From contig CAVUWV010000010.1 in NCBI GenBank assembly GCA_963745075.1, positions 416,001-480,000 of the forward strand: DNA of 64,000 nucleotides, given 5' to 3'. This DNA comes from Candidatus Hydrogenedentota bacterium (GTDB lineage: Bacteria > Hydrogenedentota > Hydrogenedentia > Hydrogenedentales > SLHB01). The notes under the pieces were generated by a model. The model was not told the DNA's origin and searched no databases. It worked only from the letters and a program-made list of their open reading frames with translations. A program made the position numbers and the translations under genes. Positions 9,176-55,261 of this stretch are shown here, one piece after another (positions within the stretch are counted from its first letter, which is position 1; every line of letters starts with the position of its first letter).

Positions 9176-10762
9176 TTACCCCGTCATGCCACGGGAGCGC
9201 AGCAGCTTGTAATCGATGCTGTCAACCAGGGCTTCGTACGACGCGATGATGATGTTCTCGGATACCCCGACCGTGTCCCACTCCATCTGCCCGTCGGAGG
9301 ATTCGATGAGGACGCGCGTCTTCGCCTTGGTCGCAGCGCGTGCGTCGAGGATACGCACCTTGTAGTCCTCGAGGTGCACTTCGTTCAACTCGGGATAGGT
9401 GCCATCGAGGGCCTTCCGCAGCGCATTGTTCAACGCGTCGACCGGGCCAGCGCCTTCGCCGACGGTATGCTTAATGGCGCCGTCCGGCAATTCGATCTTG
9501 ACCGTCGCTTCCGACACGCCCTCGGGTTCACCGTTGCGTCGTTCCACGGTAACGCGCAGGCCGTGCAGTTTGAAGAAGGATCGATGCTCGCCTTTCGCGC
9601 GGAGGATCAGCAGTTCGAGCGATGCGTCGGCGCCTTCGAATTCATAACCCTGGTTTTCCATTTCCTTCACGCGTTTCAACACAGCCTTGGTTTCGGGTGC
9701 GTCGCGGTCGAGTTCGATCCCGAAATCCGCGGCCTTTTGCAACAGGCTCGATCGGCCGGACACTTCACTCACGGAAATGTGGGTGCGATTCCCGACCAGC
9801 TCCGGCGGGATATGTTCGTAACTCGTCTTGAGCTTCTTCACCGCATCCGCGTGCATGCCGCCCTTGTGGGTGAAAGCGTCGCGTCCCACGTAAGGGTCGG
9901 AGTCCCGGGGGATCATGTTTGACAACTCGGCCAGCAGGTGGGAGAGCGGCGCGAGGCTCTCGAGCTGCGTCGGCGTTACAACCGGCAAGGCGAGTTTCAA
10001 TTGCAGCGCCGGGATGATGGTGCACAGATTGGCGTTCCCCGTGCGTTCGCCGTAACCGTTGATGGTGCCTTGCACGTGGACGGCGCCTTCTTCGACCGCC
10101 GCCAGCGTGTTGGCAACCGCGCAGCCGCTGTCGTTGTGGGTGTGGATGCCGATGGCGGCTTCGGGCAACCGTTCGCGAACCGACCGCGTGATGCGGGAAA
10201 TCTCGGACGGGAGACGGCCCCCGTTGGTGTCGCACAGTACGAGGACTTCGGCGCCCGCGCGAAATCCGGCTTCGAGGACGGACAGGGCGTATCCGTCGTC
10301 TTCGCAGTAGCCGTCGAAGAAATGTTCCGCATCCAGGATCACGCGGCGTCCCTGAGATTTCAGGTACGCCACGGATTCGGCCGTGAGCCGCAGGTTCTCG
10401 TCCAACGACACGCGCAGAATGTGCTTCGCGTGAGTCGGCGAGGACTTGGCGAAGATCGTGATGACTTCCGTTTCGGCGTCCAGAAGGGCCTTCAAATTCG
10501 CGTCGTCTTCCACCGCCGATTTGGGATGGCGCGTGCTGCCGAATGCGGCCATCTTTGCATGCTTGAGTTCCATGTCGCGCGTGCGGGCGAACAGTTCAGC
10601 GGCTTTCGGATTGGACGCGGGTTGACCGCCTTCAATGTAGGAAATGCCAAAATCGTCCAGCGCTTTGACCACCCGGATCTGATCTTCGGCGGAAAACTTG
10701 ACGAGACGCCCCTGGGCGCCGTCGCGTAATGTGGTGTCATAAATTTCTATGCGGGTCGACAC
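9176..10762 (-). CDS. cimA: Citramalate synthase
   Basis: YDTTLRDGAQ, DAEHFFDG, LCDTNGG, HTHND, GYGERTGNANL, HKGGMH, LeuA-type regulatory domain. Confidence 0.92.
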   Translation of the reverse strand: MSTRIEIYDTTLRDGAQGRLVKFSAEDQIRVVKALDDFGISYIEGGQPASNPKAAELFARTRDMELKHAKMAAFGSTRHPKSAVEDDANLKALLDAETEVITIFAKSSPTHAKHILRVSLDENLRLTAESVAYLKSQGRRVILDAEHFFDGYCEDDGYALSVLEAGFRAGAEVLVLCDTNGGRLPSEISRITRSVRERLPEAAIGIHTHNDSGCAVANTLAAVEEGAVHVQGTINGYGERTGNANLCTIIPALQLKLALPVVTPTQLESLAPLSHLLAELSNMIPRDSDPYVGRDAFTHKGGMHADAVKKLKTSYEHIPPELVGNRTHISVSEVSGRSSLLQKAADFGIELDRDAPETKAVLKRVKEMENQGYEFEGADASLELLILRAKGEHRSFFKLHGLRVTVERRNGEPEGVSEATVKIELPDGAIKHTVGEGAGPVDALNNALRKALDGTYPELNEVHLEDYKVRILDARAATKAKTRVLIESSDGQMEWDTVGVSENIIIASYEALVDSIDYKLLRSRGMTG

Positions 10763-51582: not shown

Positions 51583-53137
51583 CTAATGTCGATACAAGAA
51601 TTCCTTCGTGTTAATCAGTGCCCAAACCAAGTCTGTCGCGGCCTCCTGCAAACCCAGCGCATCGGTTTGGAAGTACGCTTCCACCGCGGCAACCTCCTCC
51701 GCTGTTGGTTGCCGCGAAAGCATTGCCAGGTAGACGGTCCGAACGAGCTGATCGGGGTTCTTCTTGAACTTCTTGACCAGATCGCGGAGCCGCCAGCCGC
51801 GTTCAATCTTGCTCTGGATATGACTCGAATTCAGCATGTGCAGGCGCTGCGCGTCCGTGGGCTGCACCGTGCGCTCGGATTCGAGACCCGTGTCGCGTGC
51901 CGGACGTCCGAACAGTTCGAGAAAGGGGCTGGTAATACTGCCGTCCGCGAGCGCGATGGAATGTTCGCTTTCGGGGATGAAGCTGAACGGTTCCGGGACT
52001 GCGCTGGAGTAACGTTCGCGGGTGCCGGTGATCCAGTTCAACGCATCGGCGAGAACTTCTGCGTCCAGTTGGCGCACGAGATAGTGGGCGAACAGGGCCT
52101 CCGCATCGGGATCGCTGCTTTGCGGGATGCAGGACTGTTGATACACCTCGGAATTCAGAATCAGACGATAGATGTGGCGGAGGTCGTACTGGCTTTGCAC
52201 CAATTCAGATTCGAGATACGAGAGCAACTCGGGATACACCGGCGGATTATCCGGCCGGATGTCGTCGGGTTCGTCAATGATCCCCCGGCCCAGCAGCCAC
52301 GCCCAGACGCGATTCACGATGTTGCGCGCGAAACACGCGTTGTCCGGCGCGATCAACCAATCGGCAAACACCTGCCGCGGATCCTGGTCCGGCCGGATCT
52401 GTACCGCCGTTCCGTCGGGAAATGTTGCGGTGAGAACCGTATCCGTGGCGGGATCGAGATAGACGATCTCCTCTTTCCATTCCGAAGTGCTCTTGTACGC
52501 GACGCGCGAGAAGAATTGGGCCAGGTTATCCTGCCAATCCTCCGACGAGCCTTCGAAACGGGTCCCCATGAAGGTCAGTGATACCGCCGCGGCGATGGTG
52601 GCCGGCTCCGTTCCCTGGATTGCCCGGTAGAAGTTGACCGGCGGGACGCGGAAATTGCTGCCGCTCGAACGTCAGGAGTTCGCGCGCAAACTGGTCGTAG
52701 GGCATGTTCTGCCGGATAGCGTCCCGGATCCAGTGGTGGTAGGCCTGGACGGCGTTTGGCCATAAGTTGATGGGAAACTCCGACTTAACGCGGAGCAAGT
52801 CGCACCATTTCAAGGCCCAGTAGTCGGCGAACTCCTCCCGTTCCAGGAGGTCGTCAATCAGCGCGGCGCGCTTGTTCGGGCGGCGGTCCTTCAGGAAGCC
52901 CTGGACTTCGCGGGGCGCGGGCAGCGTGCCGATGACGTCGAGATACACCCGCCGTATAAAGACTTGGTCCGAACAGAGATGGGCCGGTTCGATACCCTTT
53001 GCGCGCAGCCCGTCCAGGACGATGCGGTCAATGGGCGTTGCCGGAGTAATGGCGTGGTCGGTTTCGTACACGGACGCGGGGCTCTGTGCCGCAAGGCTCG
53101 CCATGAAAACCGCCGCCAGAAGCACGGTTCCCCCCAT
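51583..53137 (-). CDS. DUF1549/DUF1553 domain protein, 1-nt insertion at ~52668
   Basis: FIRRVYLDVIGTLP, PYDQFARELLT; then FARNIVNRVW..LLGRG, LILNSEVYQ, FGRP, DLVWALIN..EF; removing one base gives LLTSSGSNFRVPPVNFY. Confidence 0.85.
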
Positions 53138-53522
53138 TTTTACAGTCTCCCCCGAGACCAGCCCTCGGCGTCCCCCGACGCATGTGATGCCGTTGGCCGG
53201 TTCGTCCTGTGCCCTTTGCGAGATAATGGTAATTCTACGGCCTATTAAACACCAGTTCGACCCCCGCGTTCCCCCTGTGTATTCGTTCATCGTGGCGTTG
53301 CCGGCGCCCTATGCCGGTACCCTTACACTACGCCAGTCGGATTCGGAAACTCTTTGGAGTGCGGTCGCTTGCGGCTGCTTTTTTTCAACCGTGTGAGATT
53401 CGTCCGCCGCCGACAAAGCCCGCGGCAACGCGATGTTGTCAAGTCCGATTCCGAGAAGTCGCGGGAAGATCGGCATAAGGACACCCGCGGAGTGGCCGTA
53501 CCCCGCGGGCTCATTGTGAAGG

Positions 53523-53768
53523 TCATTCTCTGAAAGAAGTCATTGCGCGGTGCGCCGTCAAACTGTTTGCTGCGCATGCAGCACCGTTTGAAAGCGGTGT
53601 CCCGAGCCGCAGGGGCAGAGGTCGTTGCGCCCCAGCTTCTCGGTGAGTTCTTTGCCATCGCCGACAATGCGGCGGCCCCGTTTTACGCAGGTCTCCGAAG
53701 GGAATCCCTTGCGTCGCTTACGGGTAATTTCATGCGTGAAAGGAGTGTTCCTCGTAGTTCCCTGCCAT
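53523..53768 (-). CDS. Small SEC-C motif (Zn-binding) protein requiring three +1 frameshifts at C-UUU-CA
   Basis: GGAGGT-5 nt-ATG (53768); [26 protein letters not shown]...[37 protein letters not shown]; each junction is CTTTCA. Confidence 0.75.
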
Positions 53769-53859
53769 GATGCACCTCCCATCTTCCGGTTCTGGAAATC
53801 CAACTGTGTTCCCCGCTCACAGCGCGTTATGCGCATCGGGCCGCACGCAGCGGCGTACG

Positions 53860-54306
53860 TCATTCGCGGTTGACGAGGAGAGACAGCGTGAGAGATGCCA
53901 GGGCGAGGAAATACAACCCGGCGCCGGCGGCGTGAGAGTATTCCCATTGCCGCCGCAAGGCTTCCCAATTCTCAGGCATGGTGGTCCAGTTGGAGGTGGC
54001 CTGGTTTGCCGGAAAGGTGTATGCGAAGAATACGATCAGATCGACCGCGATGCATAGTCCCGCGAACAGAGCCAAGATGCAACCGGCAGGGCGTTTCCGT
54101 TCCAGAAAGGCGAGCAGCAACAACAGGATCAATGCCCCGACCACGGCAAATCCGAGATAATGCCATCCGCGGTAGTTCTGCTGAACGATTCGGTAATCAT
54201 TCTGGGACAGTCCGATCTTGTTCGGCAATTCGTAGAGGTGTGCAAAGCCGGCGGACATGGCGACGGCGGTGACCATGACCGCGGCGAAGCGAACAGCATT
54301 CAGCAA
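53860..54306 (-). CDS. DUF1772 / anthrone oxygenase-like membrane protein
   Basis: [29 protein letters not shown] start just after the upstream stop. Confidence 0.75.
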
Positions 54307-54310
54307 GCCC

Positions 54311-55261
54311 CTATCGCTCCGGGGCCGGCTGCCGGGTGTTCTCGAGTTTGCGGAGCTTCTTGATAACGGCATGCCATCCCTCCCGCACACTGGGGTACTT
54401 GGGCGCCCAATTGCAGTGTTCCCGGAGTTTTCGATTCGAGATTCGCAGCGATCGCGATAAGGTTTCGCCGACCGAGCCGAACAACTTCGCGGTCCAGGCC
54501 GGCGGCAGTTTCGGCGGTGGGACCCCCATCTCGTGGGCCAGCAGGTCGAAGTATTCGCGCCGCCGGACCGGTTGGTCATCTGTCACGTTGTAAACGCCCG
54601 CATCCGCATCAAGTACCGCAGCCACCGCGTTCGCGCTGTCACGGTGCGCTATCGACGAAACGAATCCCTGCGGGTCACCCGGAAACAAGGCCCAACCGTG
54701 GCGCAAGCTACGCATCATGTCGTGCGTTTGAAACGCGTCGGAACCGTAAAACAAAGCAAACCGCAGAATGATCCCTTTGCGCCCCCGTTCCGTAAACCGG
54801 TGCGCCGCCTCTTCCGCGTCCAGAATGGACCGGTTGTACCGCGTAGGCAAAATGCCCATGTTTTCGTCAATCCACTGGTCGCCGCAGTCCTCGTAGACTG
54901 GGGCGAACGATTCTTGAACGTACCGTTCGACGCCGCCGGCCAGGCACGCGTCCACCAGGATGGACGACGCGAAGGTTCGGAGCCGGTCGTTTTCACGGAA
55001 GGCGCCCGGAATAAGCGCGTGCAGAGAACTCGAGGGGATATGGGTGGCGAGGTTAACGACGGCGTCATGCCCGGCAACGGAGCGACGAACGGAGGCGGCG
55101 TCGAAGAGGTCCACTTCGACGGGCCGGGCACCCTTGAGTTCAAGGCCAAGGCGCTTCTTCGTGGTCCGGCCCACGGCGGTAACGTCGTGTCCTGCAGCGA
55201 GTAATTGCGGGATGAGCCGTTTACCCACGACCCCGGTGGCTCCAGCGACGAATATTTTCAT
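54311..55261 (-). CDS. NAD-dependent epimerase/dehydratase family protein
   Basis: IFVAGATGVVG, VVNLAT, LRFALFYG, YNVTDD. Confidence 0.9.
   Translation of the reverse strand: MKIFVAGATGVVGKRLIPQLLAAGHDVTAVGRTTKKRLGLELKGARPVEVDLFDAASVRRSVAGHDAVVNLATHIPSSSLHALIPGAFRENDRLRTFASSILVDACLAGGVERYVQESFAPVYEDCGDQWIDENMGILPTRYNRSILDAEEAAHRFTERGRKGIILRFALFYGSDAFQTHDMMRSLRHGWALFPGDPQGFVSSIAHRDSANAVAAVLDADAGVYNVTDDQPVRRREYFDLLAHEMGVPPPKLPPAWTAKLFGSVGETLSRSLRISNRKLREHCNWAPKYPSVREGWHAVIKKLRKLENTRQPAPER

Follow-up and report, generated by a model that had tools for sequence, protein, structure and literature searches.

A small SEC-C gene of Candidatus Hydrogenedentota is probably translated through three serial +1 frameshifts at phenylalanine UUU codons

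The DNA analysed in this work, referred to as the window, is a stretch of 64,000 nucleotides (nt) from a Candidatus Hydrogenedentota bacterium (assembly GCA_963745075.1, contig CAVUWV010000010.1, positions 416,001 to 480,000). On its minus strand it carries a small gene for a SEC-C zinc-motif protein, whose coding sequence is broken three times. The full-length product is probably made by serial +1 ribosomal frameshifts at three UUU_C sites, with tRNA-Phe slipping from UUU to UUY. Judged by its sequence, the gene is intact. It belongs to an uncurated, widespread family of small SEC-C proteins, in which such breaks fall at up to four fixed Phe codons (S1 to S4) across many phyla. The genome of the window is designated G000, two other species of the same genus G003 and G004, and loci and proteins of the family bear L and P numbers.

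Structure of the gene and of its product

Serial +1 frameshifting was proposed for this gene in a first-pass annotation of the window. Each of its statements on the sequence was confirmed: the Shine-Dalgarno (SD) sequence GGAGGT (53779-53774), the ATG at 53768, the stop in the starting frame, the product of 80 amino acids (aa) ending in RE-stop and the presence of CTTTCA on the minus strand at 53742-53737, 53594-53589 and 53536-53531. The parts of the gene, with the skipped bases of the proposed reading, are as follows:

53774..53779, minus strand: SD sequence GGAGGT, 5 nt 5' of ATG 53768; GGAGGTGCATCATG is identical in three same-genus genomes
53780..53782, minus strand: ATG in the body frame, a possible bypass of S1, in this genome only; overlaps the SD site
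53739..53768, minus strand: leader segment, first frame, from ATG 53768 to TTT 53741-53739; without a shift it stops at TGA 53732-53730
53737..53742, minus strand: site S1, TCC TTT C, base C 53738 skipped; TCC TTT CGA in G003 and TCC TTT CCA in G004
53591..53737, minus strand: body segment, second frame, carrying the first half of the SEC-C motif
53589..53594, minus strand: site S2, within the SEC-C motif, CGC TTT C, base C 53590 skipped; without a shift reading stops at 53560-53558
53533..53589, minus strand: tail segment, third frame, encoding the second pair of Cys residues and the tail typical of the family
53523..53536, minus strand: site S4 and gene end, TTC TTT C AGA GAA TGA, base C 53532 skipped, leading to RE-stop

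A GGAGG-type site stands ahead of the leader ATG in most loci of the family, and in contiguous relatives leader and body are joined as one protein, M...SNFEITSKRRKGF. At S2 the sequence CCGCTTTCAAACGGTGCTGC is identical in all three same-genus genomes. The family site S3 corresponds to TTT 53562-53560 and is contiguous in the window (TTT GAC, 53562-53557); the third break of the window is the family's S4, at which TTT TAG with a +1 R-E-stop is the norm. In G003 and G004 S4 reads TTT TAG, followed by AGA or AGG and GAA TGA, with the same +1 R-E-stop. The third frame, if not shifted further, stays open to 53323. The three-step reading, in which an in-frame TTTC counts as one Phe step, gives the 80-aa product with its stop at 53523 (P0001).

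Counted over both strands, the window contains 33 copies of CTTTCA, in comparison to a mean of 22.8 after shuffling. The expectation of about 0.05-0.06 copies per 250 nt of one strand is near the ~0.03 estimated in the first-pass annotation, and three copies in 212 nt are far above chance, in a comparison made post hoc. The view of CTTTCA and a following CAN codon as the unit was abandoned because S1 is TTT CGA in G003 and TTT CCA in G004 and S4 is TTT TAG in both; the conserved unit is TTT followed by T or C.

The three-step product matched the Pfam SEC-C profile (PF02810) with 37.8 bits over 19 of 19 profile positions (gathering score 20.4), and the unshifted body reached 28.2 bits over 14 of 19 positions, still above the cut-off. 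The four metal ligands, CPC...KRCC, are complete only after S2, and the 0-frame reading lacks the second Cys pair. Proteins of the family comprise ~64-80 aa, with a basic N-terminal half, the motif CPCGSG..F-K.CC and a tail ..DG..R..YF-R-E/D. They share the CPCGSG..F/Y-K-x-C-C/H knuckle with the C-terminal metal-binding domain of SecA and with the SEC-C motifs of YchJ and YecA but differ in standing alone, at 64-80 aa, with a conserved N-terminal half and a DG..R..YF-RE tail of their own. When sequences of solved structures were searched, the SEC-C knuckle alone found matches, in YchJ-C (9l6b, E 1e-8) and SecA (1sx0, 1tm6, 1ozb). Binding of Zn or Fe(II), of SecB and of ribosomes is described for the SecA C-terminal domain (PMC13178939). 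The basic N-terminal half and the tail matched no Pfam, NCBIfam or PHROG family; NCBIfam and PHROGs gave motif-level matches below cut-off only, and the protein Atlas SEC-C clusters only. The AlphaFold2 model built with an alignment of 18 contiguous relatives was poor (mean predicted local distance difference test score 54.9).

Conservation in the genus and reliability of the sequence

G000 contains one copy of the gene. Among 60 related genomes searched a full-length relative was found in only G003 and G004, and in both the match was split at the equivalent place. Their DNA is 72-77% identical to the window, and all three breaks are kept at the same Phe codons. In the body, 24 of the 32 differences between the window and G003 fall at position 3 of the codons of the proposed frame, and the codon changes are synonymous in 21 cases and non-synonymous in 7. 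Contigs from four public runs (three studies) span 53459-53900 in pieces, with zero inserted or missing letters; the depth of these contigs is only 2-3, and one run may be the source sample. Since the same breaks occur in two same-genus genomes and the independent contigs contain no insertion or deletion (indel), the gene with its three breaks is, on this evidence, intact and the product of neither error nor decay.

The alternative that the gene is a pseudogene in decay or an artefact of assembly, its T runs having gained or lost bases by chance, was considered in view of the neighbouring DUF1549/DUF1553 gene, which is broken by a +1 indel (not at UUU), and of decayed copies of the family such as that on plasmid CP114562.1. 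However, the breaks are identical in three species, independent contigs are free of indels, the conserved residues are all intact, the substitutions are of the coding type and the same four positions recur in the ~150 loci described below. This explanation appears already contradicted by the sequence data and is hardly credible.

Frame breaks at fixed Phe codons throughout the family

A search of 5.8 billion proteins yielded 1334 relatives of 44-140 aa. Among the 120 listed relatives, 26 stop or lose K-x-C-C right after the Phe of CPCGSG..F, and in 12 of the 120 the called open reading frame (ORF) ends exactly at ..GSG(H/R)(R/S)F. Some relatives are contiguous through every junction, e.g. P0003, MANNTHDWEESNFEITSKRRKGF...GSGHSFKNCC...DGSKRNHFF. 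Natural contiguous relatives were found for each junction; at S4 they end in ..YFRK, ..YFRD or ..YYRE.

The scan of species-representative genomes detected 587 relatives; the best 80 were read, as were the loci of the window, G003 and G004, and 76 of these 83 loci could be parsed. Cultured carriers of the family, going by the names in the records, include Lysobacter sp. CA196 (L056), Pseudaquabacterium terrae (L085) and Haloferula sargassicola (P0067). A metagenome scan detected 541 relatives, and 74 of the best 80 were parsed. One of the two patterns used in the metagenome scan, CPCGSG[HR][RS]F, favours the shifted H/R-R/S-F subfamily, and the proportions given here are not to be taken as prevalence. 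The state of the four sites was as follows:

S1, leader/body, 76 genome loci: +1 66, contiguous 4, tandem +2 (TTT T TTT C) 5, not classifiable 1
S1, 74 metagenome loci: +1 43, contiguous 19, tandem 9
S2, inside SEC-C, 76 genome loci: +1 56, contiguous 20
S2, 74 metagenome loci: +1 50, contiguous 24
S3, before the DG tail, 76 genome loci: +1 27, contiguous 48, unclear 1
S3, 74 metagenome loci: +1 21, contiguous 49
S4, before the final R-E/D-stop, 76 genome loci: +1 50, contiguous 17, unclear 8, cut off 1
S4, 74 metagenome loci: +1 51, contiguous 13

Among the 66 fully classified genome loci a single gene needs one step, 11 genes need two, 52 three and 2 four, and none is free of steps. Two, three and four steps are needed by 27, 27 and 7 genes, respectively, of the 61 fully classified metagenome loci. 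The rule that three steps bring the reading back to the starting frame was dropped: it applied to 52 of the 66 genome loci but to just 27 of the 61 metagenome loci.

At the +1 sites of the genome loci the P-site codon was TTT in 196 of 199 cases and the following base T or C in 197 of 199. The shift site may be written as UUU with a pyrimidine and two purines after it, where U as the pyrimidine creates a stop in the 0 frame and C a sense codon; U is about as common as C, and about half of the sites have a 0-frame stop. The next codons in the 0 frame were CGA (27) and TGA (26) at S1, CAA (46) and TAA (5) at S2, TGA (20) and CGA (7) at S3, and TAG (26) and CAG (17) at S4. Where S2 is contiguous it reads TTC AAR (17 of 20). 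Of 66 loci, 21 have TCC and 22 have TGC before S1, and in 27 the next codon is CGA; some S1 sites contain runs of 6-7 T. Despite the many Lys AAA/AAG codons in the gene, the breaks are confined to Phe codons.

The entropy at the three codon positions was 0.50/0.43/1.50 bits in the body (71 loci) and 0.83/0.72/1.34 bits in the tail following a shifted S2 (45 loci). Purifying, coding-type constraint is present family-wide in each successive frame. The proposal of one gene that needs serial +1 recoding at Phe UUU codons is strongly backed by the two genus mates, by the 76 and 74 parsed loci and by coding-type conservation. The homologs are mixed and not uniformly contiguous, and UUU-Y is kept at these positions, contrary to the pattern that the first-pass annotation had named as a refutation.

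In P0082 and P0089 the region of the Cys pair is translated in the 0 frame (QGMLHEIW.. and QALLHAL, respectively), after which the reading regains the family tail ..YDGS.R..YF; this corresponds to a compensated double shift with the second Cys pair dropped.

The same loci bear on a different explanation, that of separate translation units. The leader would then be a small regulatory upstream ORF and the body would be started on its own, at ATG 53782 in the window and at the Met of MSKRRKGF in many relatives, to give a product ending soon after ..GSGHRF without the second Cys pair. An in-frame Met does stand right before KRRKGF in many relatives, and the 12 of 120 listed proteins ending exactly at ..GSG(H/R)(R/S)F, the frequent His before the break, the regained tail frame of P0082 and P0089 and the score of the unshifted body above the SEC-C cut-off (28.2 vs 20.4 bits) point in the same direction. 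Nevertheless, coding-type conservation across phyla extends to the frames that follow S2 and S3 and to the R-E/D-stop behind S4, the 0-frame tails are not conserved, and leader, body and tail form one ORF in contiguous relatives. Moreover, G003, G004 and many other loci (..FERTSKRRKGF) have no start in the body frame, and the strong SD sequence precedes the leader ATG. Separate units are considered unlikely. The bypass of S1 by ATG 53782, mentioned in the first-pass annotation, may apply to this genome and does not extend to the relatives, with ATC in G003 and ATT in G004.

Serial slippage of tRNA-Phe as the probable mechanism

In the favoured reading, that of serial +1 slippage on the ribosome, translation would start at the SD-led ATG 53768. 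At S1, S2 and S4 the peptidyl-tRNA-Phe (anticodon GAA) in the P site would re-pair from UUU to the overlapping UUC, and decoding would resume one base further on. Ribosomes failing to slip would produce a 12-aa peptide or a protein that either lacks the second Cys pair or carries a long junk tail. The output would be the product of three site efficiencies, with a steep response to slower A-site decoding or to a loosened tRNA-Phe. The tRNA-Phe GAA of G000 (C15:117411-117486) can re-pair in the +1 frame at these sites, and UUU_Ynn is described as especially +1-prone in bacteria, a stop codon not being needed (PMC5009743). We infer that the ribosome, and not a change at the RNA level, makes the step, and the same holds for the efficiency of slipping and for a role as a gate for translational stress.

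Two features upstream of S2 are consistent with a ribosomal signal. At the two positions before a shifted S2 of the genome loci, 33 of 89 Arg codons were AGR, vs 31 of 326 elsewhere in the same genes; in fresh loci the values were 21 of 72 and 19 of 274 (Fisher odds ratio 5.5, p 2e-6, with kin that are not independent). SD-like words of at least 4 nt preceded the shifted S2 in 20 of 56 and 16 of 50 cases and the contiguous S2 in 2 of 20 and 2 of 24.

Several results weigh against serial slippage. The window's S2 has no SD-like word, and the above proportions mean that only 20/56 and 16/50 of the shifted S2 sites have one. No RNA structure signal was detected downstream of S2 (median z -0.15 at shifted vs -0.5 at contiguous sites). 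Over 2763 long ORFs of G000 the share of TTT was 0.425 before codons starting with C (0.484 in TTT CAA) vs 0.308 overall; because TTT is preferred, not avoided, before such codons, UUU_C by itself cannot be very slippery in G000. The A-site codons at the window's sites are ordinary, with CAC, CAA and CAG at 15.5, 12.2 and 20.1 per thousand in G000. Three serial sites working at the few-percent efficiency of unaided sites would give almost no product; for CCC_UGA the shift efficiency is reported as generally <=2%, with 15% in pheL, in the paper from which the term 'shifty stop' comes (PMC3082878). The loci are also related, and the counts and Fisher tests overstate their independence. Finally, purifying selection across the segments, a check suggested in the first-pass annotation, holds for the body and, family-wide, for the tail; within the genus alone the 19 codons of the tail, with 3/3/4 differences by codon position, are too short to show constraint.

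CAC, CAA and CAG being common codons in G000, the hungry-codon idea was rejected for the window, and the suggested sensing of Gln or His supply found no support. Among the 46 tRNAs of G000 (completeness 89.7%) none with a four-base anticodon was found.

The extra base could instead be removed or bypassed at the RNA level, by transcriptional slippage on the T run or by an unknown kind of editing, to give an in-frame mRNA. At each site the T run exceeds that of contiguous relatives by one base (TTC becoming TTTC, and TTT A becoming TTTT A), and S1 runs reach 6-7 T in some loci. Most runs, however, have only 3-4 T, and productive transcriptional slippage is described for longer runs. T5C5 and longer runs are treated in PMC5009743. 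In addition, the gene never uses the A runs of its many Lys codons, and the enrichment of SD-like words and AGR codons before S2 suits a ribosomal signal. A step at the RNA level is very unlikely.

Association of the family with tRNA arrays and RNA-repair genes

About a fifth to a third of the relatives lie in spare-tRNA arrays or beside genes for Ro60, RtcB, Thg1, Hen1 or RNA ligase. For 73 genome loci the longest open frame of each 1.5-kb flank was compared with Pfam (138 frames), which revealed repair neighbours at 8 loci of different phyla: RtcB at L048 and L118, Hen1 at L064 and L100, Thg1-like proteins at L058, L094 and L100, RNA ligase at L065 and a Ro60 vWA protein at L090. With these neighbour proteins as tblastn queries, matches were obtained in 17 of 80 fresh loci (median length 3.4 kb). 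TROVE and vWA_Ro60 domains (Pfam) are encoded directly downstream of the family gene in L146, L160, L190 and L194. The gene order is RtcR, Ro60, family gene, HEPN_AbiV, RtcB in L159; family gene, Band_7, RtcB in L192; NIF phosphatase, family gene, RNA ligase, AAA_33, RlaP, R2K, RlaP in L163; and family gene followed by Thg1 in L169. L159 also contains, directly 3' of the family gene and between Ro60 and RtcB, a match to the Rfam Acido-Lenti-1 RNA (10246-10291, minus strand; 49.1 bits, gathering score 37).

ARAGORN identified 66 tRNA genes in 233 kb of genome loci (9 of 80 loci) and 114 in 472 kb of metagenome loci (26 of 80 loci). The rough expectation, from ~46 tRNAs per 6.8 Mb in G000, is 2-3 per sample. 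Nearly all array tRNAs are on the strand of the family gene, which sits within the arrays: in L087 it follows 15 tRNAs and is followed by 5. The order Arg(tcg)-Arg(gcg)-gene-Cys(gca) recurs in the family.

The window copy is located outside such clusters. No Rfam match was found in the 64 kb, the neighbours are a membrane protein gene and a DUF1549/DUF1553 gene, and the RtcB, Thg1-like and Band_7 genes of G000 are on contigs other than that of the window.

On mobile elements, just 2 of 47 viral-contig loci (L211 and L212) matched beyond the motif; in L211 the family gene lies within a 21-tRNA array with three tRNA-Phe genes beside it. The phages collection gave no family match. Three plasmid records matched, including CP114562.1 (Candidatus Manganitrophus sp.), in which an unannotated decayed copy (L210, 7001-7138) with an in-frame TGA inside CPCGSG and a lost Cys is placed between tyrosine recombinase and SIR2/ATPase genes.

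In Anabaena, long tRNA arrays (L-arrays), in which protein genes are embedded, and the co-regulated rtcB are described as induced by translational stress (PMC8421152). The likeness lies in the many relatives found in same-strand arrays or beside Ro60, RtcB, RtcR, Band_7, RlaP, RNA ligase, Thg1 and Hen1. The system differs in that neither a SEC-C gene nor frameshifting appears in the text of that paper, and in that the window copy is outside such a cluster.

The array tRNA-Phe(GAA) near family genes (L048-L207, L211) has G37 in 8 of 10 cases, vs 2 of 34 for the other UNN readers. The array UNN readers for Cys, Trp, Tyr and Ser have A37 in 26 of 26 and the array CNN readers A37 in 56 of 70. The tRNAs of G000 itself are canonical (Phe A37-A38; CNN readers G37 in 10 of 10). 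A DNA search for the array-type tRNA-Phe in 5 same-genus genomes gave no match and is uninformative.

These tRNAs raise a further explanation, in which a dedicated or altered tRNA-Phe, e.g. the array form with G37, would read UUUY as a four-base step and the ordinary host tRNA-Phe would not slip. The preponderance of G37 in array tRNA-Phe (8/10 vs 2/34 in other UNN readers, with A37 in the tRNA-Phe of G000) and the three tRNA-Phe genes beside the family gene in L211 agree with it. On the other hand, G000 has one normal tRNA-Phe (A37-A38) and no four-base anticodon among its tRNAs, the window copy is in no array, most family loci have no tRNA in the stretch examined, and all anticodon loops seen have 7 bases. 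Four-base reading of this kind is highly improbable.

Comparison with known frameshift systems

To our knowledge, programmed +1 frameshifting in bacterial cellular genes is limited essentially to prfB and a few single-site cases. The prfB gene, encoding release factor 2, shifts at CUU_UGA_C with an SD-like element 3 nt upstream. Like it, the family would use a +1 slip in the P site on a U-rich codon before a slow A-site codon; many of its sites are UUU_UGA, UUU_UAA or UUU_UAG, and an SD-like word, in many cases GGGAGG spaced by 3 nt, is present at about a third of the shifted S2 sites. A minority of prfB genes have UUU_U instead of CUU_U (PMC5009743). In contrast to prfB, the slip codon of the family is UUU and not CUU, the sense variants CGA, CAA, CAG and CAC are as common as stops, two to four serial sites are found in a gene of <250 nt and the product is no release factor. 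The sites of the window, all UUU_Y, do not match the CUU_UGA_C type; they have no stop, and S2 has no SD-like word.

The bacterial UUU_Ynn sites, including that of the Yersinia YopN-TyeA fusion, show the same tetranucleotide and direction and need no stop (PMC5009743) but are low-level or single-site, whereas in the family they are fixed at up to four Phe codons across phyla. The influenza A PA-X cassette UCC_UUU_CGU resembles S1 of the window's genus, TCC TTT C(AC/GA/CA), and an effect of the E-site codon is reported for UCC (PMC5009743); it differs in being a single site on a viral mRNA, read by eukaryotic ribosomes, with a minor accessory product. In Euplotes a gene may depend on two or more obligatory +1 steps, at which the A site contains a stop codon (PMC5009743). 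There it is a genome-wide trait of altered termination in a ciliate, and here it concerns one bacterial family in genomes that otherwise read UUU_C normally.

Searches pairing SEC-C or the SecA metal-binding domain with frameshifting, and SEC-C with RtcB, Hen1 and Thg1, found no published description of the family. Most likely, this gene is translated by serial +1 frameshifting, in a new form of a known mechanism, and the gene neighbourhoods of its relatives open a new lead to systems of translational stress and RNA repair.

A possible translational gate

More tentatively, and with considerable doubt, the serial UUU_Y sites may be viewed as an ultrasensitive gate on translation. Production of the zinc-motif protein would require that decoding is disturbed (for instance by tRNA cleavage or undermodification, ribosome damage or a lack of release factors) or that a spare-tRNA array is switched on, and the protein would then act on ribosomes or RNA in a stress response involving Ro60, RtcB and tRNA arrays. 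Such a sensor-effector circuit would have spread by horizontal transfer across bacterial phyla. The array tRNA-Phe with G37 in place of an ms2i6A-type A37 may be the slip-prone reader.

A conserved, horizontally widespread gene with two to four +1 steps in <250 nt would represent a new design. Its output would rise as a power of the slip efficiency, a property suited to sensing the state of translation with a threshold. Serial frameshifting would likewise account for the failure of annotation pipelines to report the family in full length or at all, the CP114562.1 copy being unannotated and many database proteins ending at a break. The link to tRNA arrays and Ro60/RtcB offers a concrete place to seek the function, and the G37 tRNA-Phe would be a candidate natural shifty tRNA.

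Surroundings of the gene in the window

Just 3' of the gene there is an inverted repeat, which is also found in the equivalent place in G003 and G004 and is absent from the list of the terminator scan. It and the neighbouring elements are as follows:

53484..53509, minus strand: G+C-rich inverted repeat CCCGCGG...CCGCGGG without a T run, read from the sequence
53860..54579, minus strand: predicted membrane protein of 239 aa, upstream of the SEC-C gene
51583..53290, minus strand: DUF1549 (PSCyt2)/DUF1553 (PSD1) gene, split in two ORFs
53341..53389: 49-nt element with a terminator-like hairpin and T run (53361-53378, plus strand)

No Pfam family scored above cut-off with the 239-aa protein, the C-terminal end of which aligns in G003. 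The DUF1549/DUF1553 gene has no ortholog in G003 or G004, and relatives have only contiguous paralogs of 37% identity. Its break is +1 and not at UUU, the frame resuming at TCG 52668 (..ACG T TCG..). In G000 the 49-nt element has 32 copies (13 as adjacent inverted pairs <400 nt apart), spread over 10 contigs, and it occurs also in G003 and G005.

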